A stretch of 63,988 nucleotides of DNA, filler included, from Hausera hauseri (taxonomy: Eukaryota): assembly GCA_046269625.1 (NCBI GenBank). It is 11 parts of 11 records of this genome, joined end to end, with 100 filler letters (N's around TTAATTAATTAA, not from the genome) between each part and the next. Parts side by side here need not be neighbours in the genome. Positions count along the whole stretch, not along the records: positions 30,881 to 35,072 come from JBJURY010709992.1; 10 more parts are not named here. One strand, written 5' to 3'. The translations under genes were made by a program, and so were the position numbers. This document shows positions 18,916-54,690 of the stretch, piece by piece. Each line of letters opens with the position of its first letter. Within the stretch, counting starts at the first letter, position 1. The notes beneath the pieces were generated by a model. It ran no database searches and was not told where the DNA came from. It saw nothing but the letters and a program-made list of their open reading frames with translations.

Positions 18916-19740
18916 TAAAGACATACGAAAACTTTTATTGTTATAACAAAATATTTACAATCAAATAGAATAATGTCCATATGCGACACTTTTATTTTTC
19001 TGGATCCACTGCATTTATCATCAAACGGATCCAATGCTTTCTTTTTGATCCGATTGACATAACCTGATGACTTTTGGTCCCAATTTGCTACTGTTCTAAT
19101 CTCGTCTTTAAATTTTCCTATTGTGGCTGTAAAACAAGTCGAGTACAGCGGATCACTCTTGTCATAGTTTGCCGTATCTAACTGTTTGCTTTTTATCATT
19201 GCCGGTAATATTTTTGTTCGTAAGTTAACACCACGACATTCAAGGAAAAAGTCGTCTGTGTCACCAGCAACAATATTTACCTCGCCAATAAACTGGTGCC
19301 TATACGTTTCCAAGTCGATGTAATTCAGCTCATAAATTCTTAACTTGGACAAAGTAAGTACGGCCTCACCAATGTATGAGGTCTTATCTAAGGTGACTAT
19401 ATCTTTATCGAGGAGATATGCAACCAGATCATCGGCTATAATAATGCTCTCTTTAGACTTTGCCTTGCTTGTGTAAGTAACAAGCGTTTTAGCATTATTA
19501 TATAATCTTAAAATTGACCTTTCCAGCAGATTTTCAACTGTTTTGCAGTGTAAGCTGTTGTTCTTAAGTTTAGAAAAGTCTTTCTCAAAAGAATTATTTA
19601 CCGCAGTCCTCTTTACAGTGTTTAGATCGATATAATCCTTAAAGACATAACTCTAGTCAAACTCAACAGCCCGATGTACCTTTTCAACTGTAGCCCCTAA
19701 CTCGATGTCCAACTGTATTAGCCGACTTACGCTCATGTGT
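18912..19740 (-). pseudogene. Polinton/adintovirus protein-primed DNA polymerase B, C-terminal fragment
   Basis: EKVHRAVEF, FEKDFSKLKNNSLHCKTVEN (degenerate motif B), VAGDTDDFF (motif C), IGKFKDE, ALDPFDDK. Confidence 0.85.
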
Positions 19741-20699
19741 AAGCAACAATTTCTTAACTTTCGATCCAGGAGGACATTTATTAATTGGAGCTAGAGGCAA
19801 TTGGTCCAACTTTTCATGTTTGTCAGCCGGAATCCTTAATTCAACTCAATCGCTAAGCCTCGTTTTTCTCTAACAGAGTCAATAAAGGGTAATTGCTCAA
19901 TCAGACTATTTAATTTTTCTATATCATAAATACAAGTCAAATTCGCAAATGTCGAAGTTTGAGATAAANNNNNNNNNNNNNNNNNNNNNNNNNNNNNNNN
20001 NNNNNNNNNNNNTTAATTAATTAANNNNNNNNNNNNNNNNNNNNNNNNNNNNNNNNNNNNNNNNNNNNGTGGATGTCGTGACAGGTGCTGTTATTCATGG
20101 TATTGAAGATGACTTACGAAATTCATGTGGAGACGATTTTAACAATAGGACAAACTCCAGAAACCTCATACATGTCTAGTAATCCCGTCATAGAATTTGT
20201 CTTCTTCTTTGTTGAAAACAAATTTCTCTGCTCTTCTGTCTTACTGAATGAAGATTTCGAGAACGATGACTACTGTATTCACTCGACAAGCATTTTGGTG
20301 AGGACACGAGATGTATCCGTTATCGCAGCACTATATCGCCCTTCGTAGAAAAGGAATGATTAAAACAATATAGATAAAACAATAAATCGCAACCAATGAA
20401 CATTGTTTAGTGCCTATTCGGTTTTATTATGTATCAGTCGTTGTGTACCATCAATGAACTTTTCCTTGCTGTGGGTGGTAAATGTCACTGCGTGCCTTAC
20501 GTGATTGATTTGTGCTTAGCTGTTGAGCGGCATTTTCTGATAGAAGTTTGTGAGATTATGTGGTTCAGTAGGTGTAGCTAATGGAGGTGAAGGAAGTGGT
20601 GATGACGAAAGAGGACAAATGATTGCTGCAGCTACACAAAGTCGTTTAGAAAATCTGAAGACGGAATGGAAGAAGTAAGAGCTGAGTTGGAATTGGAGG

Positions 20700-23600
20700 T
20701 AGGTCGTTATCAATCGGCTATTTTATCTCTATACGCTTCGTCGTCTACAATGGGATTGGACTTCGCAATGGCACTTTTAACGCCAGTTTGCTTATTAGAT
20801 TGTATATTTTTTATTGCTGTGAAAAACTGATTTTCTTGGTCTTACTTTATTTCTAATTTTGCCTTCCTTCTCAATTCCGCTTTGCTTATATTATTTTCGT
20901 ATGTCTGCGCAATTTTTCCCCTCTTGTCTGATTGTCTCTTCCCAACGAGATTCAGCACTTTGTTCCGTATCGTCTGCGTCTTCCCGATTTAGATTCTCTC
21001 TCTCTGGCGTAGTGTTTCTCAAAGACATCAACGTAAACGCATCCTTACTTCATTCTTCGTCCTTTGCTTTTGGTAACTCACTGGGCTGACTTGCCATTGA
21101 TCTTCCGTCTTTCTGGGAAACTCCGGATCGTTCCACCACTCTGTAGTTTCTCGATGCCTAAACCACTAGACAGGTGATCTGCTGGGTTATGTTCTTATTT
21201 CACATAGTTTCTTTGTCCTCCGGTTGATTTCTCGTAGATGTATCCGACTCTGTTCGCAACAAACGTCTTGTATTATTTGCTACAGGCTTTGATCCAGTAC
21301 AGTACGTTGATTCTGTCCGTCCAGTATTCTGTATTCTTTATTGTTGCGCACGGTGTTTCTCACTTTCCTGCCCAGCTTGATCCTTATGCAGGCTGCCATC
21401 AATTTCTGCCTTTCGAACATAATCACTACCTTAATTTCTTCTTCCACTGTAGTTCTTAAATAAGCGACCTCTCCGTACCCCCATTTCGAGGCGTCAAAAT
21501 GTATGAATTTTACTGTCTCCGTTCTCTTGGAATTGTATTTTACTACATTCAAGCTCTCCTAACCTTTTATCCTTGTTCTTATTTTCTCGTTTAATTTCTT
21601 CGGGATCTTTTCGTCCCACTCCACATGCATCATCCACATTTGTTGTGAGTATACCTTACCTAATTAAGAAAGCCTAACGGATCGAATACCTTCGCTAGAA
21701 CACTTAATAGTGTTTTTTTCGTTATTTCTATCTATTGCTTGTCATGATTCTCAAGCCCAAATTTATCATCTACGATTTACCATTTCATCCCCAGCGACTT
21801 GGTGATAAAGTCCGTTTTTTCAAATACTAAATTCCTTAGCTCGACTTGTAGTAGGTATTAAGTTTAGTAGTTCATTGGAATTCGATACCCACTTGTGTGG
21901 CTCCATCGCAGCCTTTTTCCAGACTTTATTTAGCTCATTGTATAGTGAGACAGCTTCCTTTTCGGTACTGACTGAATCAATGCCGTCATCTATGTATGTA
22001 GATCACTCTATTGTTTCCACAGCTCTAGGTAATTTATCCTTAAACTTTTCGGCGTTATGCCTTGAGATCAGTTGCGCCAGAAACGGAGAGGCATTCATTC
22101 CAAATACCAACCGATTGAACTCATCTTGAGTTTTCCATCCTTGTACCATAGGAATCTCAAATATTTTTGATCCTCTTGCTTTACCTTAATCTGCAAGAGC
22201 ATTTCTCGGATGTCACATGACGATCCATGGGCGTTTCTTCATCCTCATTAGTATGTCTATAATATACAGTTGTAATTTTCGACCGAGATTGACAAAGTCG
22301 TTCAGGCATGCCCCGATATCTCGAAGCAGTATCGAAGACTTTTCGACATTATGTAGTTTTCTTTTTAATTTTCATGACCGGAAAATGCGGTATCAACCAA
22401 GCTGTTTTCTATTCTCGTTCTTCCACCACTCGTATATACTCTTCCTGCGTATGCGTTTATATTACCCTCTCGTAGGCTGCCTTCGCCTTTCCATCTTTAT
22501 TCAACTTATTCCGTATAGTTTCTAACCTTTTTTGTGCAATCCATTAATTACATGGCAACGGCACGCAGTACCTATTCTCTTCATAAGTTGTTTCTTTTCT
22601 TACCTGCATTATGATTTCGTCTAGTATGCTTCTCCGAGACTCCTTTGAATAAATGTTGAATTCGACCTCCCACAATCGGTTGAGGTTATTTTGAAGTTGC
22701 TCGGTCCTTGTCCAAAAGGTCCTCACAAAATTGCTATTCACGTTCTTCTTTCCCTCCTTTATTTTTTCTACACAAGTCCAGCCCAACGGACTTAACCGCG
22801 CCACTGGCTCACCCTTTTTGCCGTACACCTTATTTGATCGGTGTAATTCCAAATAATTCGCCCCAATGATACCATCCACTTCTAACCTGTGGGACATCGT
22901 AGGGAATTTTAGGTTCTTTCGATGGATCTACCTCTGTTTTTCTATAGACCATTTCACTGTCCTCATCCTTCCGGTTAGCTTTCTCATGGTCTACGCTTCG
23001 AACTGGACCTCCATCGATCGATCGAGACTTATCAATTCCATTTTTACCCGACCAATGGACGTCTCTGTTTTCCTGCGACGACTGTTATCGTCAGCCTCTG
23101 TCTTTCTATCAACATTTAACTCTTCAAACACTTGAATATACGAAACTCCGCACTAGCACTGTCCAGCAGCATTATTGCTTTCCTCATTTTATTTCCATTC
23201 TTTAGCCATACTTCCACTGTCCTCAGAGCTACCATTTCTTGTTCGTCTTCTCCTGGGAACCTTGGGTTACGTAAGTTCTAACACCTTTTTGTTTATTTGG
23301 TACCCCTTTTCCTTTATTCTTTGACGTCCTTGACGCAGACCTCTTCGCAGGGATCTCCGACTTCTAGTTCCACATTCCTTTTGTTACAGATGTTTTTTTT
23401 CATTTTCCTTTTTACCAATTTTTTCACTTAAAAATTTACAATCACCACCATACCTACAATCTCCATTTACAAAGACCCTGCATACTCTTCTTTGATCATT
23501 TTGCTAGGTTCATGTAAATATTTGCAATCATCCCCGAATCTACATTGACCATTTTTTATCGTAATTCCAACATTTCTGGGACTGAACCTCTTGCTCCGAA

Positions 23601-23990
23601 TTGGTGCGGTAAGCCTGTATCCCATTTTTAACCTCCTTATCATTTTTTCTGAAACTGGGATTCTCGAACTCTTTCCGACTGTGATTTCTTTGTGAAAAAC
23701 GACTGTCCATCTCCTGCCGACAAACGTCGACCACTCTGACTGGTATTAAACACCTCTATTCCTCTTACCATTTCTATAGAATTTCTCCTTACCATCGCCT
23801 CTATTTCTACCCAACTGTTGAATTCTTCTACAGTCCTGCTCGTCCTTTTCTCGACGATATGCCTTTCCCACAGTAACACGGTTGATTCTTGCAGTTTCTC
23901 CATAAGGTTTTGGTACAATAAACCTCACCTAAGCTCCTCTGTTCTCCCCAGATTTCTTAATCTCGCTATGTATCTACCCTAGAATTAATT
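20700..23990 (-). mobile_element. BEL/Pao LTR retrotransposon remnant (gag, protease, RT, RNase H; integrase not seen)
   Basis: MLLDSAS (protease), IIGANY...PVARLSPLGW, FNRLVFGMNASPFLA, TYIDDGIDS, FDASKWGYGEVAYLR, NPADHLS. Boundaries approximate. Confidence 0.85.
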
Positions 23991-24291
23991 TTCTTATCCG
24001 TAAACCCCCTTTTCTTCAAAACTATCATCAACTTATACCGACAATCATCGCTACATGGCGGAAATGTTCATGTTTAATTCTATTTTCAATCTCAATCGTT
24101 ACACTCCATCCAATCATACCAACAGCGTCCCTTTCCACACAACTCACAGTAGCATCCACGAAATCAGAAATTGGGAGTAACAACTACCAATATTATTAAA
24201 ATCACCTCTAACTGCAATAACAGAAACGTTGTTTGACCTTTTCTCGGTTTCATGCCTTTCACAGAAATAAGATTGTTAGTAGATCGCGTCT

Positions 24292-24573
24292 CTACCATCC
24301 CGACCTCAACATCACTTGATGATATTTCCTGATGATATTGTTTTCCCACATGTTTTGAATGGTTTCATCTATTTTGCTTTCTAGATTCACTGGTTGTCTA
24401 TGCAGTTTGATGTTAATTGGTGCGCTTTTTGTGTCTATTCTATGCTTGATCAATGTTGTACAGCCGATATCCCAATTGTCGGCCATTAAGACTTGGTTTC
24501 TCTGTACTATGTCTAATACCACTGAGTTTTCGTTTATCCGTAGAATCTCCTTCACTCTTGAATTGTTCTTCAT
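24292..24573 (-). mobile_element. Ty3/Gypsy reverse transcriptase N-terminal fragment (different family)
   Basis: DIGCTTLIKHRIDTKSAPINIKLHRQP...IDETIQNMWENNIIR. Confidence 0.7.
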
Positions 24574-24941
24574 TCGTCACTTTTCGACCGAATTTTGCTT
24601 CTAAGTTGCATACATAATAACTTTGTTCATTCCCATCTTTCTGTCTCCAACCTAATTCGATTCCAGAAGTCTTGTAGTTCCATTCCTCCGATTATTTCTG
24701 GTAATATTTCTGTCACTACTATGGAAGTTACGCGCTTCTGTACACCCTTGAGTTCCACATTTACGGATAGTTCATCCATGCAGTCTAGGGGGCTACCATT
24801 TGCACGACGGAGCGTGATATCTGATTTCTCCAGCTGAACATNNNNNNNNNNNNNNNNNNNNNNNNNNNNNNNNNNNNNNNNNNNNTTAATTAATTAANNN
24901 NNNNNNNNNNNNNNNNNNNNNNNNNNNNNNNNNNNNNNNNN

Positions 24942-27096
24942 TATTTTGTATTTTTTGAAGTCTCTTCGCAAATTTTATTCCTGGGTAATAATTGTATCGG
25001 ACGAATGCCTTTTCTGCCGTTTCTAAATCTAATTTTTTCAATGCGTGTTCAGCTAACTTTTTCCACATTTTGTTATGTTGACTAAGTTGTAATTGTTGAA
25101 GATTGTCATGTGAAAGAGAAATAGGAATAACGTCGGAATCAGAATCAGACGAATCGGATGAATTACTAGAATCAGAAGAGTTACTAGAAGAATAAAACTG
25201 TTCCGATTCCAACTCTGTTAATGGTTTGTGCGGTGGAATATTCGAACTTTGTTTCCTGATTCTAATTGACTCAATTTTCAAACTGTAACGATCAAATTGC
25301 TGTTGGAAAAATGTGGTAATGTCATTTGGATTTGACAATAAAGTATCGATTTCGCGAAAATTTCCCGGATTATTAGCATAATCGAGATGCAATTGTGAAT
25401 TTAAATGGTCGTATAAATTGGAATATGTGACACTGCAACATTCGCAAAATGCCAATGATTTACGATTTCTTCTCATTGAACCGTCTTCTGATTTCGAGTC
25501 GGTGTCATCGTTATCAACTACATGGATCTCTGATTTTGACTCGACAACAGATTTGTCAGTTTGATCCGTATTGTTAACAACATTGTAAAGAATTTGAAGT
25601 GACTCTTTAGACCACCGAATCAAAGGGAACCGTTGCTTCATTGCTTCAAAAAAGACGTATTCCGTTAAGGTTTCTAACGACAATGCAAAATCGGCAATTG
25701 CTAATATCTGACGTTCACTGATCGTATCATAAATATCAGCGGAATTCATTATCGTGGAATGAACAATTTCAATTATCGTATTCAATTTAACTGACTTTAC
25801 GCTTGTCGAAACCGTTTTGGAATGCTTCAAAATATCTTGCAGACTTTCAGAAGTGTCTGGTGATTTTAAAAGAATCAATGAGTTCCACTTGTTTTTCGCA
25901 AGATCTTTGTTTGAACTGTACCCGAAAGAGTCTATAGAAAACTTTGGGGCGACATCAACTGGTGATAATAAGGTTTCTTGACTAACAGTAAATGTCATAG
26001 TTTCAGAAGTTAAAATCAAAGGCCTAAAATGCATATCCGTTTTTGGTTTGGACAATTTAACGCGTTTTGAATTTGACTGTCTGTCCCAAGTTCTGGAAAC
26101 ATACGGCTGAAATGCACTTTTTCTGAAATCATCGTTGTTAATTTTTATACTTTGAAGTAAATCGTTATTAGAAACAACATATCTGAGTTCTTTAAGAAAA
26201 GATGGATTCTGCTGAAAAAACTCATGAACATCTAGTGGAAGTTTTGTTTCTGTTTTCCTCAGTTTTCCCTTCATATCCCTTATTGAAATATCGTATAAAT
26301 ACTGTTGTTTTAAACTTGAAGCTGAATCTAAGCGTATGTACCACCAATGACTCCATCGTTGAAATAGACTGATGATTACGTTCCGGCACTTAACTCCATG
26401 GAATGCGTGTTGGCTCTTACAAAAGTACAAAACGTCATTAATGATCAAATCAGTGGAATTTTGCATTCGATAAATCATCATAAGAATATGATTTGATATT
26501 TTCACTCTATTATCGTTCTGAATAACATCGATCATAATTTTACCAACTGCATTTATATATTTAATGTCATAATATTTCATGATAAGGCTATCTTTCGAGC
26601 AATACTTACAAATATAAGAAGGGAAATGTAAAATAATTTTGCCGTTTGGTTTAAAAAATATATTGTGGATTGTAATGCACAAACATTTGCTCAGATTTGT
26701 TTCATTAAGAAGGGTGTTTGAAATTTTTCTAAATAGTATGTATAAAAATATAAGACATTCTTGATCGGAGTAAAAAATGGGATCATAACAGTAATTCCAT
26801 AATTGACTGAGACTGAAATAACCGATCTGTAAATAAAGCATGTCAGTGCAATTTTTAGTGATCTGTAAATTTCAAACGTTTTCCTCTGATCCGGTTCCAG
26901 ACTTTTCATTGGATAGAGAACCTAGAGAAAGTCTGCTTGCCGTTACACTTCTATCAGTTTCAGATTCTACGTCAGTTATTAAACTGTTTTCTGTTGAAAG
27001 AAAAGATTCTTGCAATTCCGAATACAATTCTTCATTATCGATCGGAAGAATTGACACTTTAATTCGTTTATTCCCATATTCCAATGGAGCGTCCAT
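24942..27096 (-). CDS. DBF4-type zinc-finger protein with N-terminal KIND-like domain and C-terminal WDR35/IFT121-like segment; two exons, 3' end lost in gap
   Basis: Exon 1 is 27096-26878 (MDAPLEY..., 73 codons). A phase-0 GT-AG intron at 26877-26827 carries CACTGAC. Exon 2 is open to the gap and contains FCECCSVTYSNLYDHLNSQLHLDYANNPGNFREIDTLL (zf-DBF). Confidence 0.72.
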
Positions 27097-27826
27097 TTTT
27101 CTTTTTTGAGAATTTGACCAATAATCAGAGTTAATCAATGTCACCATCCCACTTCTGACACCAGTTTTAGTTATTGAGAAATTAATTCCAATTGAGAAAT
27201 AAATTCCAATAAATTCGAAATGAACTAACAAAGAAAACAGTTGAGACTGTAAAGTTTATTCAAAAGTTTTTTAAATCAATTTTTTTAAATCAGTTAATCA
27301 TTTAACAATATTTACATAAAAGGTATTTGTATATATATACAATGAATGTCTAACACGTCGACTGTCCAGTAGGCGAGGTTGATTTCGGAAAGGAGAATGT
27401 TGAAGAATTGTGAGATGACGTAATCATATATATGTATGTTGCAGCCCACACACTGTCCAAATTCAGATCACCCATTTGATTGTCCAATAGCGGGAATATT
27501 AACAAAGTGTGGAATGACGTAGTTGAAGTAATTGATTGAAGAGGATTGACAAGAAAGAGTATTGAAGAGTTGTAAGATGACATAATCACAGGTTGTTATC
27601 TTCTGATTTGTTGAACGATTTCATTGAGCAGGTTGATATTTTCTGATCTGTTGAAATGACTGTTGACGTGATTGGAAACTCACGAAATCTCTCCGTCGGA
27701 AAAACCAGACGCGCCCACGACCGCGGCACCACAATCACCAACGTGTGTGTGTGTGATTGTTCAATTTGTGTACACATATTAGCGTGTGTCCGTGTCGCTT
27801 TTTCTGGCACCCTGGTCTCAATAGAG

Positions 27827-28375
27827 CATTGTTTCCCAAAGTGTGGTACGCAAACCCCCAGGGGTACGGGAAGAGTTTTGTTGGGGTACGCGCTGCACTG
27901 GGCTTTGGCTGAGCCTGGTGCAATAAGCAGTTTGTTTTTTTCTTTTTATTACATAAATGGAAAAATAATGAAAAGAACTTGTTATTATTGTGCATGTGTA
28001 GTTTTGTATGTATGCGTAGCCGTGGCGTCGTCGAGTGCAGTGATTACGGATATTCCCTCACCGCATAGCCCAGCGAATAGTGTCGTAAGTGCTGCACAAA
28101 AGTCTGTGCCTTTAATGATGTACTGAAAATATTTTCTTTGAAAGAACTTATCATTTAGTAATTTTTCAACAATCTGAGTATTATCTAACAAATGAAACCA
28201 TCAAACCATCCAATTTAAAGCGTCATTTTGAGACCAACCACAATCAGTACAAAGGTAAACCTATCGATTTTTTTTTTGAAAACAAACTTCAGGATTTAAA
28301 TCAGTCTCAAAAATTAATGCGGAGTTTGACAAGAGGTGACAATCAAAAAATCCGAGAAGCTTCGTATCGCATCGG
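27827..28375 (+). mobile_element. hAT (Buster/Charlie-type) 5' remnant
   Basis: TIR-like CATTGTTTCCCAAAGTGTGG and transposase fragment ETIKPSNLKRHFETNH...KPIDFF...EASYRI. Confidence 0.7.
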
Positions 28376-28562
28376 TATGCATATGTAGAAAGTTTGGGAA
28401 ACAGTGCAATAGAGTATTAAAACAACATCTGCTATTCCCCCCCCCAATAAATGAAATATTATTCCACAAGCATTCTGGGATATTTACAAGCTCCATTCCG
28501 GTTTATACGACCAATATTATACTATTCTCACAAGGAACACCCACAAACTCGAAGATTTCGAA

Positions 28563-28923
28563 TTTTGGCACTTGTTCAATTCCCCCACACACACACACGA
28601 TATTTACGAATGTCGAACTTTTACAAAATTTTCCTTACTTCGCTCGACCTATTGTTCTGTTAACATTCAATTTTCTAATGTTTCCTTCATGTTCAGTCAA
28701 CCTAAAATGTATTCGTTGCGGTCTCCCATGCATAGACTATACGCATCAATAACCAGAGATTATAGTCCGAATATTAGACGAGTAGTTTTTATTTCGGCGG
28801 AACATCAAGAAAACGTTATAAACCGAATAATAAATAAACATTAGCCGAAGAAAAGAAACGAAAATTTTGCAAAAGTTCAAAAATTTCTAAACCTAGCGGG
28901 GAGATTTGAACAAGTGCCGAAAT
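28563..28923. repeat. MITE-like element with imperfect ~60-bp inverted repeats
   Basis: GGCACTTGTTCAA...GAACTTTTACAAAATTTT (28568-28632) is mirrored by AAAATTTTGCAAAAGTTC...TTGAACAAGTGCC (28861-28918). Confidence 0.6.
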
Positions 28924-29049
28924 ACCGCTATATTTACAAAGTTTAAATTGCGTTATTTTGACGTCATTTGCACACAGATTTTTCACGTTCCGGTTAACGT
29001 TCTGTCGTCGTTACAAATATTTACTGAATATTCAATCCGTATTGATTAC

Positions 29050-30378
29050 CCTTTCCCACAATATTTTCCAAATAAAACAGAAAGAATGATCCTTTCTCAT
29101 AAGGCACCCTCGAGAACGCATCGTCGGGATCAAGACCGACAAGATGCGGATTCAATTTGCAGAACTCGTGACCCGGTCCGTGAATATCATTGAATGCATC
29201 CAACTAATCCAATGGAAAATAATTCGACAGGCCATAGATCTACTCACCGATTCCTGCAATTCAGCCAGACCACCTTTAATATGGAAATGTCGATAATCCG
29301 TTGAGTTAACATGGGCCTCCAGAATCAACCTCTCAACGTAATTCGTATGACCCTCGTTGACCCAGAAATGATCCCAATTGCTGTTCGTCACCAAATTTCC
29401 CGTCCATGAATGTGCCATTTCGTGGGCAAGAACGTGAACCTGAGACCGATCGCCACTGATTAGACATGGCGTGACAAACGTCAGACACGGATTTTCCATA
29501 CCACCGTACGGGAATGATGGTGGCAACACTAAAACATCGTAAACACCCCATTCGTACGGTCCACAAATCGACTCGGCAATGCTCAAAATGCTTTCCATTT
29601 CGGCAAATTCCCACGCAGCTGCTTCGACCATTTCTGGCTCACTCCAAACTGTACAACGCGGGCCAACATTGATTCCTTTCAAATTACCACAGACAATGGC
29701 GATCAGATATGATGGAACGGGGATCTTCTGTAAAAATGAGTAAGCCATGTGATCTTTGCAGTCATTTTCTTCTAATTTAACGGCACTCATTAGAACTTTA
29801 ACGTTTTTTGGTGCTTCTACTCGAGCTGTAAACGGAGCCTTTACCGATGGTGTGTCTTGACATGGAAGGAGACTTCTTGCATGAACGGCCTGACATTGAC
29901 TGAATAAATACGGCTCCTTTCCACCTAAGGTCATCGATGGTTTTAACCACTGCAGAGCAGTACAACCACTGGTTGTCGAATAGACGATTTTCACCAAGAA
30001 TCTGAACAACCACCATAAAACAACCACCAGAATTAAATAAAATTACTTTTCCTTTTTTAACATTATCGGAATTTCAATGCAACTCCAAATGTCGCCGGTT
30101 TTGCTCACGAATGGAACTTTGTTTCCATCGACAGTTACTTCTTCAATATTCAATTTATTAGCGTCCAAAATCTAAATAAATTATTAAAAAGGCATAAAAT
30201 TAATATCTGTTAAATTTACCAGAACATCGGCTTTAGAATTCAGAGTTCGAATTTCATGCTCGACAAATCCGCTTAATGTTTCGGAAGCGAAATCAACTTT
30301 CCAATTAAAATGAGACTTCTCGGTAACAAAGTCTTCAGCGTTTGCATATGACGTTGGATCGTTCTTAGATAACTCCAT
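29050..30378 (-). CDS. LTA4H: Leukotriene A4 hydrolase-like M1 aminopeptidase, 4 exons, C-terminal domain not found
   Basis: Exons 30378-30220, 30171-30047, 30001-29248, 29203-29050 with GT-AG introns of 48, 45 and 44 nt. Motifs: [42 protein letters not shown]...WVNEG, VPYEKG. Confidence 0.9.
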
Positions 30379-30880
30379 ATTCAATAAGTAGTGAATTCCA
30401 AGAATGTAATAAAATTTATAGTATAATTTTATGTCACTTTAAATACATCCGACAAGTATTACACACACATTGTAATGCCTGGTATATTTGAAGCCTGAAT
30501 GTGTGCAGACTTAAGTAAATTTATGTAAGTGAAAAATAATCTATATAATGTTAATGAAGATGGATGCGATTGTATTTAACACCATGAAAATATGGAAAAA
30601 AAAATTTAATTGTACACAAATAATAATAGCAAAGTTGTTGCGCATGTATCACAGTATCAATTGGCAATATTAATACTGCAAAATATTGCAGACACAAACT
30701 ACAACAAGTAACTGATTGTCCTAAATATCCACAGCTAATCTAGATGTACATTTTCTAAAGTGCATGAACAGTGGAGGGAANNNNNNNNNNNNNNNNNNNN
30801 NNNNNNNNNNNNNNNNNNNNNNNNTTAATTAATTAANNNNNNNNNNNNNNNNNNNNNNNNNNNNNNNNNNNNNNNNNNNN

Positions 30881-31935
30881 TCGTAATTCAGTTTGCATTC
30901 ATTCAATATTATTTCTCTATATAAGTTTCTTATTTCTTGTCGAACGTAGTTAATCAAGTAATCTATTTTGTTATCGAAATATTGCGTTAATTTGATATCT
31001 TTTCTATCTATTTTAATTTTTGCTTAGGATACCTCTCTCGATGAGAGATATAGTCCTTTGTAATTGGTCTTAAACATTTCTTCATTACATTTATTGGTCG
31101 CCCCATAATTTTAAAACGCATCGTCTCTTCAGGGTTCTGTGAATACACTACCGTTGCTACTTCCGTCATTTTTACTTCTTTGACCCCTTCTCTATAGGTT
31201 GTTGTTTCTTTCTCGGCCGTTTTTCCTATTGTCTTATTAAATTTCCCTTCCTTTAATAGTGTCAAATGGCATCTATTTGAAGATGTTTCCCATGTCATTT
31301 TTGATTCTCCGGTATCACATTCACCGCTCTCATATTCGCATTCGCTCATTATTGTCATGAGTCTTGTTTGTGAATTGAATAATTCTTCGTATTCTTTTAA
31401 CTGGACCTGGTAGTCCTCGATTGCACCGTTCTTGGAGCATTCGTTCCTCCGACATCGTAATCTACCCATTTACAAGTACCTTCCATTGTTTTATCTATTC
31501 TTCCTGCTCGAAAAATTCTGGTATATTTTATCTTTCCTCGTACAGCTGGGATTTGAGCATTCTGTATAGTTATGATCCCGATTTTAAAAGCGTCTTGGCA
31601 TTCAGCTCGTGATATTATTATTGGCTCAAAAGGGGTCGTCGGTTCAATAATGGCCGAATTTCCTGAATAATATGCACAATTAAATAAAAAGAATGACTTC
31701 TTCACGTAGCACTCTCTTATCTTGACTTTTATAAATTCTGACTCCTGATACACCTAATATCAAGGACCACTGGTTGTTGTCAATTGTTTTGGGTCCGCTT
31801 CGGGGCATTTTTCTAAATCTATTAGCGAATACTTTTGTCCCTCTTTTGGTTTCGAACAATCATAAGCCACCATTCCCATCGCTTTAGGCATGCATAATGA
31901 TGCTTTCAGTAATATTTGTAGTATTTCCATAAATG
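30881..31935 (-). pseudogene. env: Chuvirus-type (class III, gB-like) envelope glycoprotein N-terminal ectodomain
   Basis: Hydrophobic signal, then VAYDC...YSLIDLEKCP...VYQESEF..VKIRECYVK..F.FNC...ISRAECQ...GTCK...CEYESGEC...W....C.L.L..G. I recognise this Cys spacing from chuvirus glycoproteins and their retrotransposon-captured homologs. Confidence 0.72.
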
Positions 31936-32219
31936 ACATTCCACCCAGACCTTGTTTATTACTGGTTGGTTGGGTTGTGGTTGGTCTTTCCGGTGTTTCC
32001 CTTTCTAATCTTAACCTACCGTTCATCAGACTAGGTATCCATCCACCTCTGCATTGTACCCAACTTCCTAAAGTATCACGCAGGATCTTAACGGTTACTT
32101 TTATATTACGCTCTATTTCCTCCAAATTCTGTTTGGTAATTAATCACTATTACTTTATATATTAAATAGGCCACCGCCGTAACTGCCTTTTACCGAGTAA
32201 TCCCTGTAGCGAACATCTT

Positions 32220-33035
32220 CTATAATATGTCCTGTTCGTGGAGTTCGTTAATTCGTTCTTCATTAATATTTTCGTAAAATTGTCTACTAATTCTCAACAT
32301 GTTATTCCTTAATGTCTGAAACAATTCATGTGGAATAGTTACCTGCATATCGAATGACGCAAATGACGTATGAAGTTTTGCTAATAACGTTCTCAATAGT
32401 GGATCTATATCCACTGATTCCGGTGCCGTTTCTGTTCCTGCTAATAGTAATCGTCGTACAATTTCCTCATTCCTATCCTTTCTATTTCGAATGTCACTTA
32501 TCTTTGTTCCTTTTGGCCTTCCTTTACTCCGTGCTTCTGTTTGTACCGTAACATCCTGAGTATCAGCTAACAACTGTTCTTTCCCTCCTTGGGGTTCCTG
32601 GGGTTCTACTTCTCTTATTATGTTAGCTATTGTTTCTTCCGCCTTCAAATCGGGGCGTATTTCGGTTATAGTGATGATATTGTAATTTTCACTTCGGCAC
32701 CCAATCCTTAATAATTGATCATAACCGTATAATGTTCGGCCAAAGAAACTTAACCCATAAACCTTTTCTTAATAAAATGGCTCTAATTCTTCAATCTTTT
32801 CCCTTAATGTCAAAACATCATCCATTTCATTCATTCTAATGATCCTTATGTCCTGATTTCTTTCCTTTAATGTTATTCTTACTGTCTCGTTCCGTTTCTT
32901 CTTACCTTCGGCTGTCTTGGCTAATATAGTTCTTGCTATTTCTCGTATTGGGCTACTATCATGGGCTAATAGCAACAATTGAAATAGAATCTCATTAATC
33001 TTAACTACTGTTACCTTATTATCTATTAATTTCAA
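32220..33035 (-). pseudogene. Accessory region with ubiquitin-like domain (one in-frame TAA at 32769-32771)
   Basis: ORFs 32769-33035 and 32220-32648 are in the same frame: VRITLKE...DDVLTLREKIEELE...YGLSFFGRTLYGYDQLLRIGCRSENYNIITIT. Confidence 0.65.
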
Positions 33036-33326
33036 TATTGCAGTTGTAGCTTAATTAACGTCTCTTATATTCTCAGAGTTTATAGCAACTACTGCCTAAA
33101 TAATATCATCTTCGGCATCCAAATCTATCTCTATATCCTGCATTACCTGTTCAATGACAGTTTCATCAAATATTTTTGTTGATGGGTTTTCTTCCTCTGG
33201 TGTTAACTCACTAGTGTTGACTTTCTTTCGTCCCCTTTTTCTTTCTATATCACTTTTTTCTATCGACGTTTCCCTTGATTCTGCTTTTATTATTTTCTTA
33301 TTACCCTTCTTTCTCCCTTGTCTAGT

Positions 33327-34400
33327 TTATCCTTCTTTCGGCTTCTCCTCTAATACATAAATACTATTTTCTCTTAGTCTTTTCTGTTGGATTTTGTAAT
33401 CTTTTAACTCCATTGCTAACTGAGTCCTCATGCGTTGCAACAGTACGTTATCAACGTAATTTACCTTTTCTTTCTTTTTATCTTTCTTATTATCTTCGTG
33501 TTCACTTTCCTCATCTTTATCGGAAGACTCCTCTGATGTAGCTGATGTGTAATTCTGTTTCTTCTCTCTCTTTTCATCTTTCGTCCTTGTAGATTCTTTC
33601 TTGCGTGATCTACAAGTTTTTGCTATATGGCCATATTTGTTACAATTAAAACATTTTAACCTACTCTCTGAATCTATACTTGGCAACGAACGGCCGTCTT
33701 TGGTGCAATGCTTCTTTGACTTATCCCCGTCTTTTTTTAACTTGAATCTTACCTTCTTTTCTACATCGGATTAAGCCTCTGTAGCTGACGTTTGCGAGAA
33801 GCTTCGATTTTTATTGTATCTCTGGTACCTTTGTGTACTATTGTTTCTTCGTTTGTAATTGTTTGTATTATCTTTTGACTTTGTCCATTTATACAATTCG
33901 GCGTCCCGTTCAGCTTTTCGAGCCTTCCTAATTGCCTCTTGAAAAGTGGAGGGGTCGGCATGCAATATAATACTTCTTAACTTTCCTTCCAACCCATATT
34001 AAAACTGAGCCAACAACGCATTATTTCGTATTACTGCATCATGATAAGCCCTCGCGGCTAACTTTGGCAGTGCAAATACGACGTCCTGAACTGTCTCGCC
34101 TTTTCGTTGCCTCCTTCGTATAAACCCCTCTATCCTTCCTTTTCCTGAAGGATCAACTAGGAACTTTTGAGGTAACTTATCTTTGACAGTCTTCCAGTCC
34201 ATATTATCTTCTTCTGGCATCTGGCAATAGATTGTTAATGCAGTTCTTTTCAGATGAAGAGGTAACCTCTCCATTCGTTGTTGGTCATTCCATCCGAAAC
34301 TCTTGGAATATACCTCATATTTCATGAGGAAATCTTGTACGTCTTTTTGTCCTAAAAACTTCTTCATGGGCAGGGTGAAGTCAGCTTTTGACTGTATCAC
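33327..34400 (-). pseudogene. gag: Retrotransposon Gag plus CCHC zinc knuckle
   Basis: KFLGQKDVQDFLMKYE...LPLHLKRTAL...RRQRKGETVQD...FQEAIRKARKAE...CFNCNKYGHIAKTC. Confidence 0.88.
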
Positions 34401-34582
34401 CTGTTCTACATTATGTTCATTTCGGGCAATTCAGTATTCCTTTTCTGTACTTAAATTGGCTATAAACTCTAACCAAAATAGTAAATTATTGTCCGAATCT
34501 ACTTTACACGGTGTCCCTTTTCTAGTCGTAATCTTAACGGTTTATTCGGCTACTATCCAAAGGTTTCTTGATTCGTTTTAGA

Positions 34583-34600
34583 TCCCCGGTCACGGCACCA
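34583..34600 (-). promoter_or_regulatory. Primer-binding site, tRNA-His type
   Basis: TGGTGCCGTGAC.. lies two bases after an LTR-terminal CA and is complementary to the conserved tRNA-His 3' end (..GUCACGGCACCA). Confidence 0.8.
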
Positions 34601-34602
34601 GT

Positions 34603-35072
34603 TGTTCAATCTTTACTAATTTCACCTGGGACAGGCTTCGAATACTTAATTTGTGAATTAATGGGTGAACAAGGTTCGGAAGAGATACCCAGATATCCTA
34701 TTCCTACCTAGCCTTAACTTATGTCTGTATGTAGGGGTCGAATAGGCTGTGGGCCTATGAAGATCAATTTATTTACTAAGGTTGTAATTGGCTCTTTTTC
34801 AATTGAAAATTAAACGGGCTGCCGTCAGGTAGGGTGGACCTGGACAGCTGTTTTCCAAATTTACTTAAACTTATACACTTACTTAATTACTTAGAAATGA
34901 TAACGAATATGAATACAATAAATATAATGTATTAAAAGAATATAGTAAAATGCAATTCTCATAAACTTACAGCAATAAGCAGAAATTAGCACAATAATAA
35001 AAATTTGTTCGAACTGTTTCACACAACACTAGTATTTATACTTGGTTGTTCGTCTCATTTTTCATATAATAT
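34603..35072 (-). repeat. 5' LTR of family C (partial)
   Basis: Ends ...GAACA immediately before the PBS. TATAAATA is present on the minus strand near 35040. The outer end is lost in the gap. Confidence 0.6.
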
Positions 35073-35571: not shown

Positions 35572-38500
35572 GTGCAACAGCAGGATCAGCAGAAGCAGCA
35601 ACAGCAAGAGGAACAGATACAACAGGAACCCGACATTAATGTCAAATACGATCTAAACAGATATTACGTGGACATAAAAGCCACCATGTCGGTGGCAAAA
35701 ACAACAACGCAATTGAGACATGTTCCGCAAAATGTGCGCAACCAGTTGGAATCTGAAGTGGAGAAATTCCAACACCACCACTACCAACACCACAGCAAAG
35801 TGCAATTGAAGGTGACAGGAAACAATGGTACCTGTCACATCGAGCTGTACCTTATGTCAATAATTTTTTTGTCGACATCGGCGAAGAGCTCTATGAGAAA
35901 ATCGCCAGCTACACGGAAAAGTGTAGTGGATGACGAATTCTACGAATTGTCACCTTAGGCTTATCATAACAAAGTCAAGTGACATAATATATTTGTCCGG
36001 ACGATCATGCATACTGACACTTGCAGCTCTAAAGCAGTTTCTGGCGGTAGTGAATCTAAAAAATACTAACGATGAATATTGTTTTGTTTACCGTATTTTG
36101 GCGGTATTGAAATATGACGAAGTGGAGAGACATAATGCATCTCGTCCAAAACGATATCGGAAATATTTTTCCGAATTGGATTTCGATGAATGCTGGATGC
36201 CGATGAAACTGAAATTCATTCCGGCTTTTGAACGGCGTAATCCGACACTGGCAATCAATGTGTACCGGTACAACACAACTGTAGAAATACCGGCGGATAA
36301 ATAAATTTATAAAAATCCACACGTGGATATAATCTATCGAAATCGGAACCTAAATGGCCGCTCGGTAAATTTGTTGCTACTGGAACAAAAAGAAAAGTAC
36401 CATTACGTTGCAGTGACAAATCTGGACAGAGTACTAAATATGGAGCATGACCATTTCCTCCAAAAACGGAAACAGTATAAACGGTGTCTTGTATATCTTC
36501 ATGGATTGAGGTCGGAAACAACATAGGAGAAACATGTGACTCTGTGCAGACAAAATTTTTCAGGAACCACAATGTATGTCATGCCCGTCAAACAAGAACT
36601 CAGGTTAACTGACTGGTCAAAAACAGACAGTCCGGCATATGTAGTATATGCCGATATCGAAGCTACCTTACCACAGCACAACATATATGACCAAAAACAT
36701 GTTCCAATCGCCATCGGTATGTTGGTTGTCCCAATAAAAGCTCCAGGCCGTCAACCTCAGTATTGTGTTTTCCACGGATGGAATTGTGTACGCGATTTCT
36801 TGCAGCAGTTGCAAACCACAGTGGAAACTGAAATCGCACCCTGGTACAGTAGAAATAGCAAAAAACCCTTGATGTGGACAGATGAGGATAAACGCCTGAC
36901 GTTTACAATCACAGATGAATGTTACCTGTGTCACAGAATATTACCGTTTGATGCACAGAAATTGTTCATACCAGATCACGATCATTTTATCGGTCTATAT
37001 CTCGGAGCAGCATGTAATTCATGCAATGTGGCAAGGCGTGTGCGGCCATTCCTGTCGGTGGTATTTCATAACTTCAGGGGTTATGATTATCACCATATTT
37101 TGAAATTAGCAATAAACGGATTTCCGCACTGGGAACTATCCATAATTCCGACTACGATGGAGAAATACCTGTCACTGTCTGCTCATATAAACCGGTTCCA
37201 TGTACGCTTTCTTGATTCATTGCAATTTCTCAATGAATCATTGACAAAGCGGGTAAATGCCTTGCCAGATGTGCCGATAGCACTGACGTAGTTCCCCGCA
37301 CATATTGCACGCAGTAAAGGCATATTTTCACATGACTTTGCAGCATCGTATGAGCAACTGCGGACAGCAGATGATTTACCTCCGCGATGGACAGGTATCG
37401 CAGAAGATGAATACCGGAAAACATAGAGGAGTTGGACAGAACTCAGCTGTAGAAACATGTTGGATTACATGCTTCAGTACCTTAAACTGGACGTGTACTT
37501 ATGAGCTGATGTATTCCAGGAATTTCGGGCGAAAGCGTTGGCTGAATGTAGGCTGGAGCCACTTAACTTTTATTCCATACCGGGAATGAGTTAGGCGTCA
37601 GCTTTAATTTCACTGGATCGAGACATTAAGCTGCTGCAAGAACCGGAAATGTACCGGCTGTTTTATGTTGGTATTCGCGGCGGCGTGACATTTGTCAACA
37701 AGCATCAGGTCCGTGTTACCGATACCACATCACTGTTGTATATTTATATTAATAACCTGTATGGCTGGGCGCTTTCGCAACCCTTACCGTACGGTTCATT
37801 CAAATGGGTTGTCGACAGACAAGATCTGGACGACATAATGGTCAACCTACCACGAGCAGACATGGCAGGCATAGTCGGATACCTGATGGAGGTCGATGGC
37901 GTTGTACTAGATGAGCTGCACGACGTTTTTGACGATTTACCGGTCGCACCATTTAACCAATGTCCGCCAGGCTCAAAAGTGAAAAAACTGCTAATGACAC
38001 ATGAACCAAAGCTGAATTACCTGGTCTGTTGGCGTCTCCTACAGTTCTACATGCAGCTTGGTGTACGTGTCACACAGCTGCATCGTGCAATCACGTTCAT
38101 GAGTAAGGCGCAGTTTCGGCGGTCAATGCACATTGCCGATGGATTAGTTGCGGTGCTGTTAAACCGGGAAGAAGTCGTTCTGGACCGACCAAGTTACATG
38201 GGACAAGTGTTATTGGACCTGAACAAGTTGCAGATGTATGAGCTACAATATCCCGATTTGGCACGTTACCGGCAAATGTTTGACGGCTGTGACATAAGTA
38301 TAATTGCCGGTGACACAGACAGTTTTTTCCAGGAAGTTTTTTGTCAATCGCAAACAGCTACTGCAGCAAATGCAGTCAGATGGATTACTGGAACACGTCT
38401 AACTATCCACTGTATCATCTGTTGCACAGCAGCGCGATCACCAACAAAATCGGCTGCTTCAAGGATGAAAGTGAAAGTCGTGTCCAGTATCGGTAATAGA

Positions 38501-38787
38501 TATTCCTACGCTCAAATTGCTACAGTCTTCTGACGGACTGTGGATCGAAACTGCGGGCAAAAGGAGTCCAGCTGAGACAGACGGAAATCGACCACGGTGA
38601 TTATCGCCGTATCTATAAAGAAGGAGGAGAATCAAAGGCTGTTGTATTACAAACGATCATCCGATCGATTGAGCACCAGCTGTATACGGTGACCAACACA
38701 AAAGTCGCTTTATCACGCAATGATGATAAGCGTAAGTGGGTGGGGCGAAATTAGAGTTGGGCGTACGGACATTGGCGTTTGGAATAA
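35572..38787 (+). pseudogene. Polinton/adintovirus protein-primed DNA polymerase B, near full length, frameshifted
   Basis: NLKNTNDEYCF, YADIEA (ExoI), endonuclease VII-like C..C...DHDH..G.YLGAACNSCN, FHNFRGYD (ExoII), RFLDSLQF, YLKLDV, NNLYGWALSQPLP (motif A), AGDTDSF (motif C), DDKR...AYGHW. Confidence 0.92.
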
Positions 38788-39155
38788 AACACGCACACCA
38801 ATGCAGAATTTGGTGCAGATAGACAGATCAAATTACTGTGACAATTCATTGTGATCTGTTTGTTTTGTATAAATAATGTATATTGTTTGTTGTTTTTGCC
38901 TTTTGTTTTATTATCCTTTAATTGATCTATATACATTTATCTATTTAACTTAACTTGAGGAGAAACAATATAAAAAACAAACAAACAAAACCAATAAGAT
39001 TTATTAATCATCATAAGTTAAAATCAAAAACAAAGTAAATCAAATGAGCGTAAACTTTCCCAGCTTCCACATTGGTGATTTAGCGCCGTGCAGATACGTG
39101 TATCCTTTCAACTTCAATGTTAGATGACCTTTAGCTCCTTCTGGTGGCAAAATTT

Positions 39156-44439: not shown

Positions 44440-45330
44440 ATCAGAGGCGACTCGTTGATCTCGATACCAAACTGAATAAGTTTTTCCTTTGTAATACAGT
44501 CTCTTCCACGGTGGCGGCTCTTACAAATTAATCACAGATTCTCAAGCTGATTTAAATCTGGTGGGTTTCTGGGCCATTCTACGACGTTTTGATCACTTTG
44601 GAAGTGTGGCATGGTGCCAGATCATATTGGAAAATTCCGAATCCATCCGGAAAGCGTTTACAAAGTTCTGGAAGGGTTCTTCGTTGCAAAACCTCAATAT
44701 ATTGCTTACTGCGCATCATTCCGTCTACGGGATGTAAGGAACTCACGCCTTAGTAGGAAAAGCACCCCCAAAACATCTTCTTGTCAGGGTGTTTGACGCT
44801 TTGATTCATGTGACATTCTCGCGGTCTTTCATCAATAGAGGTCCGTACATGTTGACTGCGCTGCCCTTGCACGAAAAAATGGCTCTCATCTCTAAAGATG
44901 ACTTTTCTCCAGTTATCCTGAGTCCATCCCTTATATTTCTGCGCCCATTTGTAACGTTTCTCCTTCATTCCTTTGGTGAGAAGTTGCTTTTTAAGCGGTC
45001 ATTTTGCGCATCTGGCGGCCTCAACGAGTCGCCTTCGGACGGTTTTGGAACTGATTTCAATTCTTCTAGCTTTCAAATGAAGATTCAAAGCATCACTTGT
45101 TTTCCGAGGGTCTTTATTACTCTCGCGCAATAAATATGCGTCATCGCTTGGCGTAGTTTTTCTCTTACGACGACAATTTCCCTTACGATTTGATGAAATC
45201 GAACTTGTTTCCTTCTTTAACTTAAGGACACGGCAAACGGTTGCAACACTAACGCCAACAATTTTTCAAATTCTCTCTGAGATTTTGGCGTATGTTCAGC
45301 CAAAGTAATAATCTGTGTACGTTTCATGGG
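44440..45330 (-). mobile_element. Tc1-like transposase remnant
   Basis: RYKWAQKYKGWTQDNWRKVIFRDESHF...SVKHPDKKMFWGCFS and WPRNPPDLNQLENL. Confidence 0.88.
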
Positions 45331-45640
45331 AGTTGTTGGCGGCGGACGTATCCACGCCGTCCACATCGTCGCCCAGCTTGGGTAGGGTTGGAAAATTCCC
45401 ACCCCTGGTATGTCCGCTAAATCAGAATTTGATCGTTTGTAATTTCTCATTGCAAAGTAACACCAGTTGTTGAAAATTTTTATTGTCTCTCAAAATACTC
45501 ATTTGGAAACAAATTTTCCGACAATTCCAAAATTAAATTAAACTTTTAATATTACATTTTTAATTTAAATTTATAGTCGAATTTTAAAATTTAAAAATGC
45601 TTTTAAATTAATTTTACAATTTCCGTTCTCGATTATATCC

Positions 45641-46371
45641 TCACACTGTGCGTTGTAATGGGTAACGGGCATTTTTTGTTTCTAAGCCCAATCGATGTCT
45701 CATAAGCACAGATGGTTCTATCTTTACTCGACTTACGTATAATCGTGTCTCGGTAATTTTCATTATGGGTTTAAGATTTTCAACTGCAGTTTTCAAACAA
45801 AAGACATTGTCTGTGCGTTTGAGCCACATCATGGCTTTAAAACCTGGCAGTAGGTATTTCGAATGATAGAAAAAGTCAAAGTACAGCGGTCCACACATTG
45901 TAACCACTTTGGTTCTGCCATCCATGCCTGACGGTTTCCTGCAGTGGCGTCATATTAGGTAGTTGTCGTAAAATGAGTCATTTTTGTGTCTGTACTGTAA
46001 TTGAGAGCCGTTTAAATGAGTGCTTTGATACTGTATAGACTGCTGTTGCCTTCAATTTTGACGCTGTTTAGAGTCAGTGAAGCCTCCTGGAACAGTGTGA
46101 GGAAAAGTTAATTTGCCCGTGTAACAGTGTCTGCTGCAGCGAAAATCGTTGATGCACCATTTTTAGCAATGATTTTTACATATAGTAGTGTGTCACTCAA
46201 ATCGAGATATTCATTTTCTGACGCCATAATGTTAAATTGAATGTCAATGTTATCGTCCATTAAAACAGAATCAACGGAGTAGACTTCTTCAAATGCTGCA
46301 TTGTCAATAACAACCTGTGGCGGGGCTTTGTCAAATATACACAAATATACACAAGATTTTGCAGGTGCCAT
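45641..46371 (-). pseudogene. Polinton/adintovirus major capsid protein, N-terminal half
   Basis: IFDKAPPQVVI...IQFNIMASENEYLDLSDTLLYVKI...GPLYFDFF..SKYLLPG...LKR...RLYVSRVKI...ARYP. Confidence 0.8.
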
Positions 46372-46399
46372 TTGCCTGTTTTAAATCAGTCAAAAATCG

Positions 46400-46745
46400 T
46401 ACGACGACGACGTTTGTTTATAGCTGAAAAGCTAGCTGATATACCATGTTTTCTCGAGCCATTACGACAGAATTGTTTTTTGACTGATTAAACGACTCTC
46501 GGTGCAGAGCTCTTTATTTCCGACAAGGCGTGTTCCTTCACAGATGGTAAAATCGATTTCTTTTTATATAGTAGCATTCTGTGTTGTTTTGCTGCGACGG
46601 CTTGAATACGCTTCAACACTGGAAATGCTAAATGTGCCAATGTACGCAACCATTCAGAGCCATACTGTTTACCAACGAAATACAGCAGTTCACCACCTTG
46701 CTGAGGTTTACTGTAAACGGAAACGATTTCAGAATCAATCATGTT
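46400..46745 (-). pseudogene. Polinton small basic core-like protein
   Basis: QQGGELLYFVGKQYGSEWLRTLAHLAFPVLK, located between the minor and major capsid genes. Confidence 0.55.
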
Positions 46746-46749
46746 GATG

Positions 46750-47195
46750 TTGTTGTTGGTTTCGACTGAAATGAGAGTTATAGAGGTTGTGGTACCGTAC
46801 GGAAATTCAATAATGTAGCCAGTGTCACACCTGATATTCATTTCCACACTGTTTATAGACTGTTTATATAGTTGCCACAGGTAAATATATTGAATTATCG
46901 AGCTTGACAGTGACATTATCTTTAGAAGTAAATCGGTTACTTTCCGGACAAACTGAACGTAGTAGTGGTACACGTACTCCACCCACCAGAATCGGTTCGG
47001 TGACATTCGTGTAAATGTACATCTGTTTTAATGCGTTTTTCAGCATTGGTTTAACTGTTGCAACATGTGCCTTTGTGTTCGCCTCAAACCGGTGTTTTTC
47101 AGAACGCAATACCATGGCCAAAGTTTTATCCAACAAAATTTCAACCACGTCCTTATTCAGTTTAAATGTGACGTAGCTATTTGTATCCGACGTGA
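46750..47195 (-). pseudogene. Polinton/adintovirus minor capsid (penton) C-terminal part
   Basis: MYIYTNVTEPILVGGVRVPLLRSV...IYLPV. Confidence 0.75.
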
Positions 47196-54116: not shown

Positions 54117-54690
54117 CTCGTCGTGTCTCTCCAAAAGGGTTGCCGGTGAACTGACTTTCTTTACAACCGGTTCTTCGTCTTCATTGAAATTTAATGGCGG
54201 AATTTTAGACACATTATACGTTTTGCGTTTTGTGGCCTTCGAGCTTGCTGGAGTCTTTTTGATAATAAGATTCTTTCATTTTTTTGTGACAAATTAGTAA
54301 TCAAATCAAATAAATCATCTTCAGATATTTGCTTTGTTTTGAACTGGGTAGCCTGTTTAATTTTCGATTCACCAAGTTCTTTACCAACAACCAAATACGT
54401 CGTTTTACCGCTAACTGTTTTCGTTACTTTTCCACCATGTTTCTGCATCAGCGTTTCTGCTGTGTCTCGTTCGATACTTTTAAAAACTATTAATGACGAA
54501 TGTCAATCCAAGTAGACAATTCGGGTCGCCGTCCGGAATTTCTTTCGTTCCCAACGCTTCGTGATTCGGCCGATTCAGATACGCATAATAAGCGGCTTTG
54601 CTCGCCGATTTTGGTGAAGACATTGAGGTACCGGATGTTATCGGTGTTTTTACTGGAGTGTATTTCTTTTCTTCAACTTTTGTGCCTGCT
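54117..54690 (-). pseudogene. RFC1: Replication factor C subunit 1 BRCT-domain fragment
   Basis: AYYAYLNRPNHEALGTKEIPDGDPNCLLGLTFVI / SIERDTAETLMQKHGGKVTKTVSGKTTYLVVG...ISEDDLFDLI; frameshifted. Confidence 0.85.

Follow-up and report, generated by a model that had tools for sequence, protein, structure and literature searches.

The GAG-ENV-POL elements of nematodes were reportedly first described by Sacco et al. in 2022. Errantiviruses with this gene order and an HSV/gB-type env occur in nematodes, bryozoans, and flatworms, as described in the accessible part of the work of Chary and Hayashi (PMC13524379). The locus analysed here resembled these elements in that env was located directly behind gag, the glycoprotein was of the gB type, the capsid was of the Ty3 type with a CCHC knuckle, and a tRNA primer site was present. 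The described elements have a Ty3/gypsy pol behind env, whereas contigs 7 and 11 of the present material ended inside env. The locus differed from the descriptions in the accessible part of PMC13524379 by its ubiquitin-like domain and by the joining of gag and env in one frame in its intact relative, the protein P0002. Within that catalogue, 23 elements used the His_GUG primer, and none of the His_GUG rows listed in its accessible part came from Nematoda, Bryozoa, or Platyhelminthes. The word “ubiquitin” occurred 0 times in the main text and the 7 readable supplements of PMC13524379, and 0 times in the available texts of PMC7642597 (Anakin) and PMC5408684 (extra ORFs of rotifer elements). The literature covered contained no pertinent report of a ubiquitin-like domain in an LTR retrotransposon, gag, or errantivirus; subscription journals, Repbase, and Sacco et al. 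2022 were outside its scope, and the last of these may annotate the region.

The same glycoprotein family was captured by another LTR element, Anakin, which belongs to BEL/Pao and carries a chuvirus glycoprotein (PMC7642597, available part). In that description, pol (PR-RT-RH-INT) is located between gag and the glycoprotein, whereas none was found there in the present element, and the capsid here was Ty3/Arc-like with one knuckle, unlike that of Anakin. Ulp1 and OTU proteases have been found in the DNA transposons Ginger, Mutator, and Helitron, according to the accessible part of PMC2836005. Those cases are ubiquitin-system proteases on transposases, whereas the present case is a probable ubiquitin-fold module in a Gag-Env precursor, which would add such modules to the ubiquitin-system parts taken up by mobile elements. 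In engineered retroviruses, a ubiquitin lacking the di-Gly and fused to Gag substituted for the late domain, and budding by the fused ubiquitin required Leu8 and Ile44 (PMC2958808, available part). The present domain was similar to these fusions as a putative non-conjugatable ubiquitin moiety behind Gag; however, the fusions in the available part of PMC2958808 were artificial, terminal, and Leu8/Ile44-dependent, whereas the domain was natural, internal, and divergent. With type II ubiquitin-like domains (UBTD2/DC-UbP, Rad23, and ubiquilin) it shared a length of about 75 residues, a ubiquitin-like pattern, an embedded position, and the absence of di-Gly, but unlike them it scored below the cut-off, was not conserved at the Ile44 position, and was located inside a retroelement precursor. 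How the capsid and envelope of gag-env-order invertebrate retroelements are joined, and how these elements leave the cell, was not worked out in the cited papers.

The Gag-Env locus of family C

The window, that is, the whole stretch of 63,988 nucleotides from Hausera hauseri that was analysed, consisted of 11 unplaced contigs with artificial linkers (N44-TTAATTAATTAA-N44) in between. The linkers were located at 3957-4056 and nine further places, and sequences across a linker were not true neighbours. Because the contigs were joined artificially, the real neighbours of the family C domain were only those inside 30881-35072 (contig 7). A 114-nt “repeat” was found to be the assembly linker and was rejected as a genomic repeat.

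A conserved and selected domain, probably of the ubiquitin fold, within the Gag-Env precursor was a real feature of this material. In family C, it was located at 32664-32882 on the minus strand, within a decayed, envelope-carrying Ty3/gypsy-like LTR retroelement with env right behind gag. The peptide that the first-pass annotation had read through one TAA was present on the minus strand, with the TAA at 32771-32769. A single frame running from 34430 to 32160 contained the capsid, knuckle, spacer, domain, and following region, with 8 point stops and 0 frameshifts. The features of the locus were as follows.

34601 to 35072, minus strand: probably the 3' portion of the 5' LTR, as judged from its location immediately ahead of the primer site; terminates in CA plus 2 nt
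34589 to 34600, minus strand: tRNA-His(GUG) primer binding site, matching 12 of the last 12 nt of the tRNA
33900 to 34430, minus strand: Gag capsid of the Ty3/Arc type, 56-57% identical to P0001 and P0002, with a stop at 34001
33612 to 33653, minus strand: single CCHC zinc knuckle (Pfam zf-CCHC, E=3.8e-5)
32883 to 33611, minus strand: 729-nt spacer, collinear with P0002 residues 212-462, with stops at 33329, 33098, and 33053
32664 to 32882, minus strand: ubiquitin-like domain in the Gag frame, homologous to P0002 460-535 and, very probably, to family B
32160 to 32663, minus strand: post-domain region, score against P0002 reached by 0 of 3000 shuffles, with stops at 32222 and 32192
30916 to 31948, minus strand: hydrophobic leader and gB-type fusion glycoprotein (Pfam PF24664, E=2.2e-16)

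The 12-nt primer site, defined by the 3' end of tRNA His_GUG as given in supplementary file 1 of PMC13524379, occurred once in the window. No second LTR was found on contig 7, which begins at 35072 and stops short of the 3' end of the element. The spacer (32883-33611) consisted of a charged low-complexity part followed by a probably helical stretch and showed no significant match to family B. The post-domain region contained a conserved, probably helical domain (window 32160-32500; P0002 600-750), and a frame change relative to P0002 was found near 32135. The glycoprotein, which was Monjiviricetes/chuvirus-like, started at AYDC (31867-31856). Its env contained stops and frame changes, was 46-49% identical to P0002 over three frame segments, and was cut by the end of the contig. 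Neither a protease motif nor an RT motif was found between gag and env of family C.

When the family C capsid was used as the query, two proteins, P0001 and P0002, were found among 139 candidates. P0001 terminated before the position of the ubiquitin-like domain, and its capsid matched Pfam Ty3_capsid weakly (E=0.0036); residues 25-178 of P0002 matched the Drosophila Arc2 capsid 6taq, also weakly (E=0.0068). P0002 was a stop-free Gag-domain-Env protein of 1130 aa, collinear with contig 7 from the capsid into env, and its single frame came from a database gene call. The domain occupied residues 460-535 of the 1130 and was thus embedded in a larger protein, and a hydrophobic peak (786-802) was located immediately ahead of AYDC. 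The sole GG of P0002 was at 746, with none following on the domain. A GRP (AT-hook-like) motif occurred after the domain in family C (32514-32522, minus strand), in family B (about 60595, minus strand), and in P0002 (586), with a further one in P0002 at 307. When the whole of P0002 was searched against 7998 candidates with lengths of 621-1978 aa, no protein other than P0002 itself was returned. Residues 651-748 of P0002 gave a Bcl-2 match (E=0.055), which was discarded, as it was not reproduced in the family C copy or the PDB.

Conservation and fold of the domain

Two copies of a second family, B, were located on contigs 2 and 11 and shared 76% nucleotide identity over 2624 nt.

5328 to 6281, plus strand, contig 2: capsid and knuckle, with 30% identity to P0002 by tblastn (E=1.5e-16) and a zf-CCHC match (E=2.5e-4)
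6282 to 9082, plus strand, contig 2: 2.8-kb coding spacer, no significant Pfam match in the ORFs scanned
9083 to 9310, plus strand, contig 2: ubiquitin-like domain with one TGA, sharing 73% identity with the contig 11 copy
61022 to 63935, minus strand, contig 11: knuckle (63935-63894; zf-CCHC, E=3.7e-6) followed by a 2.9-kb spacer, several frame changes
60788 to 61021, minus strand, contig 11: ubiquitin-like domain, stop-free (Pfam ubiquitin, E=0.12)
59994 to 60787, minus strand, contig 11: GRP-containing post-domain region, then the hydrophobic leader and the env start (VYDC, 60011-60000), where the contig ends

The contig 2 knuckle had Tyr at the last Cys position, and no primer binding site was recognised upstream of gag on this contig. 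The domain was known from 4 copies in total, all of which (4/4) were located behind a gag knuckle, and all 3 copies that extended far enough were followed by a YDC glycoprotein, contig 2 ending earlier; the association with gag and envelope that the first-pass annotation took as a test was observed. Its estimate of the distance from knuckle to domain, about 0.7 kb in family C versus about 2.8 kb in family B, agreed with the measured 729 nt versus 2875 and 2801 nt. The distance from the domain to YDC was near constant (797 nt in family C, 780 nt in the contig 11 copy of family B, and 281 aa in P0002). The family B motif of the domain was found at 60889-60860 (minus strand) and 9209-9238 (plus strand). 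The pattern Y.[FL].F.GR.L occurred 3 times in the six frames of the window, exactly in the three domain copies, which is a description rather than a test because the pattern was drawn from these copies.

The domains of families B and C were, with high probability, homologous, as judged by profile comparison. Direct comparison was marginal: the local score between B and C was reached by 31 and 124 of 5000 shuffles, and pairwise BLASTP between the two domains was not significant. The HMM built from family B ranked the family C domain first outside B, at E=0.19 with noise at 0.21 (1224 chunks). An HMM of this kind missing family C had been named beforehand as grounds for giving up the homology; formally it did miss, whereas the reciprocal profile from C and P0002 succeeded, and the miss was attributed to the lack of power of the B-only test. 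The P0002 domain linked the two families, since its score against C was reached by 0 of 10000 shuffles and its weaker scores against B by 33 and 49 of 10000. With B left out, the profile of C and P0002 detected the B domains at E=3.7e-4 (contig 11) and 1.9e-3 (contig 2), and the next best match after B was at 1.2 (1224 chunks). As a control, 17 sliding 80-residue family C profiles, built alike, were searched against family B. Five of the 17 reached B at E<1e-3, of which three were from the capsid, one from the knuckle, and one from the domain (8.6e-5), and the best of the other 12 reached E=0.074. The search and this control together indicated that the domain is homologous and the sole detectable island shared by B and C between the knuckle and env. 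The proposals that a homologous domain was kept in family C and that it forms a core module were thus borne out, the former with the aid of P0002. For the helical stretch ahead of the domain, the B-C scores were reached by 16 and 1014 of 3000 shuffles, and the post-domain region showed no significant homology between B and C (227 and 496 of 3000 shuffles). Searches with the domain ORF of family B found no relative among longer proteins or 1.84 billion representatives.

Purifying selection on the domain, which the first-pass annotation had called selected, was evident between the B copies (dN/dS 0.13; pN/pS 0.22, 95% interval 0.12-0.39; 75 codons), and the 53 codons behind the B domain gave a dN/dS of 0.08. 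The same annotation had regarded the spacer as an expandable helical linker, and this part did not hold, as the B spacer had no internal repeats and was about as constrained as the domain. Four of its segments gave dN/dS values of 0.16, 0.29, 0.18, and 0.25 with intervals overlapping that of the domain, and the two knuckle-proximal segments gave 0.28 and 0.40. Repeat expansion was rejected as the origin of the long B spacer owing to the absence of internal repeats, and, together with the constraint, this argued for an extra coding region gained, lost, or replaced rather than an expanded linker. Within the family B Gag region, some 930 codons of coding sequence (6282-9082, plus strand; 61022-63893, minus strand) were selected and free of repeats; the ORFs scanned had no Pfam match, and two ORFs of the contig 11 spacer had no credible match in the PDB.

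The domain probably has the ubiquitin fold, as suggested by several sequence searches. Pfam listed ubiquitin as the sole family for the family C copy (E=0.027, 14.7 bits) and gave the same family for the contig 11 copy (E=0.12) and P0002 (E=0.031), although the scores (14.7, 12.5, and 14.5 bits) missed the PF00240 gathering cut-off of 25.4 bits; the contig 2 copy had no Pfam ubiquitin match. A profile of P0002 and the contig 11 copy, in which the N-terminal half was poorly aligned, retrieved 26 PDB sequences at E<=10, of which 23 were of the ubiquitin fold, many being ubiquitin variants and therefore not independent. The best match was UBTD2 (0.021), and Rad23, ubiquitin, ubiquilin-2, and ISG15 were also present. 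In these alignments, the domain length and the strand-strand-helix-strand spacing agreed with ubiquitin. Searched singly against the PDB at E<=10, the C, B, and P0002 sequences gave 0, 8, and 5 matches, and ubiquitin was not among them. By Atlas features, the B domain scored 0.93 against a ubiquitin cluster (rank 3), with 163 shared features, below the guide of 170, and P0002 at 0.86 (rank 10) was a lead only. A C-terminal di-Gly was found in 0 of 4 domain copies, and the position of ubiquitin Ile44 was occupied by Ser, His, or Tyr, as read by eye from the PDB profile alignments. Because the di-Gly was missing and the Ile44 position was not conserved, the domain was considered to be integral and non-conjugatable.

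It is improbable, in our view, that the domain is homologous between B and C and yet has another fold, the likeness to ubiquitin being a match of a small alpha/beta pattern. That every ubiquitin score was under threshold would fit such a pattern match, as would the structural comparisons. AlphaFold without an alignment gave low-confidence models (pLDDT 43 and 50), of which the B model had no helix; VIA wide gave a best Z of 4.0 with no ubiquitin-family entry in the top rows, and Foldseek gave no match at E<=0.001 for these models. About 17 of the 41 among the matches listed for the low-confidence P0002 model were ubiquitin or elongin-B, but at E 2.7-9.4 they were not taken as evidence. On the other hand, Pfam gave the same family for three copies that were only 23-30% identical, the PDB profile and Atlas concurred, and the length and strand-strand-helix-strand spacing fitted ubiquitin.

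Possible roles in assembly and egress

Read from gag and env alone, the element may be of the GAG-ENV-POL errantivirus-like type and encode a Gag-Env precursor with a ubiquitin-like docking module, a reading with about an even chance of being correct. A docking role of the domain in assembly or egress is judged to be evenly balanced as well. The internal hydrophobic leader would insert the precursor into the ER, a topology predicted only from hydropathy, and Env would be freed into the lumen by a cleavage likewise predicted only from hydropathy. The Gag part would remain cytosolic, with the leader as its membrane anchor. Since the capsid began about 20 residues from the N-terminus, there was no matrix domain, and the part that follows the knuckle may take the matrix/late-domain job from the opposite end. 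As an integral beta-grasp module that is not conjugatable, the domain would dock a partner while assembly takes place at the Env-bearing membrane, the candidate partners being the element's own proteins and a host trafficking or ubiquitin-system factor. Canonical ubiquitin receptors were considered unlikely partners because the Ile44 position was not conserved, whereas Leu8/Ile44 were needed in budding by fused ubiquitin. The domain outlasted all else between the knuckle and env, which makes it the likeliest part for joining the capsid to the envelope and for exit from the cell, and it provides a marker with which the roughly 1,500 errantiviruses of the published catalogue could be screened.

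A wider proposal, which we put forward tentatively and with a low expectation, is that in a lineage of envelope-carrying retroelements Gag is “inverted”: with no N-terminal matrix and a membrane-anchored module behind the nucleocapsid, the encoded ubiquitin-like domain would replace both Gag ubiquitination and peptide late domains and couple capsids to the co-translated gB-type envelope for egress. If true, it would be the natural counterpart of the engineered Gag-ubiquitin fusions. The probabilities attached to the readings of the role overlap in part.

Besides docking, the domain may be a built-in late domain, a mono-ubiquitin mimic that recruits ESCRT receptors (TSG101, ALIX, and HRS/STAM) for membrane scission. 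The domain accompanied env in 3 of 3 informative copies, and the three canonical late motifs (PTAP/PSAP, PPxY, and YPx(1-3)L) were all absent from P0002. Engineered fusions of Gag with ubiquitin can bud in the absence of late domains, but they require the Leu8 and Ile44 patch (PMC2958808, accessible part), whereas the Ile44 position here was Ser, His, or Tyr and the domain was internal, not terminal; because of this requirement, such mimicry was considered unlikely. A degradation or extraction signal was likewise held to be unlikely; here the domain, in the manner of the Rad23/ubiquilin type, would deliver the precursor, or the spacer once cleaved, to the proteasome or p97 and so set Gag:Env levels or uncoating. 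Its integral position suits a type II domain, and Rad23, ubiquilin-2, and UBTD2 were among the best PDB profile matches, but these reached only E 0.02-0.7 and identify no donor. The patch equivalent to Ile44, to which proteasome receptors bind, was not conserved in the domain.

More doubtful still is a nuclear or chromatin role, in which the part behind the knuckle would be an accessory protein and the domain would act like SUMO as a scaffold, either for import or for the targeting of integration. The region contained basic stretches and GRP motifs, one of them following the domain in each of C, B, and P0002, and Rad60-SLD clusters were found among the Atlas matches (0.92, 36% of members); however, GRP tripeptides are short, and the post-domain region was without significant B-C homology. 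Some RNA and DNA viruses carry inserted ubiquitin that host deubiquitinases cut. Such a processing signal between Gag and Env would be useful in a place where no protease was found, but it is highly improbable here, as 0 of 4 copies ended in di-Gly and the internal leader already gives a cleavage route. Docking at the Env-bearing membrane was kept as the preferred reading, at the even weight given above.

Other elements and host genes in the window

Several other mobile elements were found in the window. Related, decayed PolB-like sequences at 36000-38800 (plus strand) and 19200-19900 (minus strand), with weak matches to Endonuclease_7 and DNA_pol_B_2, are presumably Polinton/adintovirus-like. 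Broken ORFs at 45600-47195 (minus strand) had no Pfam match, and we assume that they resemble Polinton/adintovirus capsid proteins; a Tc1/mariner-like transposase remnant was located beside them at about 44500-45400. A decayed LTR element at 20800-24841 (minus strand), with CCCH-type zinc-finger-like stretches near 23450-23600, contained motifs that we take to be BEL/Pao-like. A piggyBac-like transposase remnant was found at 11300-12730 (plus strand; DDE_Tnp_1_7, E=1e-6).

Exons of UBA1, an RFC1-like BRCT protein, a DBF4-like protein, and an M1-peptidase in the window indicated a eukaryotic sequence with the standard code. An alternative genetic code was rejected, as three host exons contained 53 CAA/CAG versus 0 TAA/TAG in 1171 codons, exons that were chosen as stop-free, so that the 642-codon exon carried the weight of the argument. 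TGA stops were also present in the family B frames, against an alternative code. The UBA1 exons (ThiF and the SCCH start) were located at 54130-57100 on the minus strand, with the RFC1-like BRCT exon a few hundred bases on; UBA1 seemed shortened here, which may reflect a compact genome, a fragment, or a misassembly. Host genes with short introns were located at 24942-30420 (minus strand) and encoded the DBF4-like zinc finger protein and an LTA4H-like M1 aminopeptidase. Ordinary Ty3/gypsy gag-pol copies with RT, RNase H, and integrase were found at 2100-3956, 48400-52300, and 58000-59893, all on the minus strand, and the two ordinary copies on contig 10 were 90% identical.
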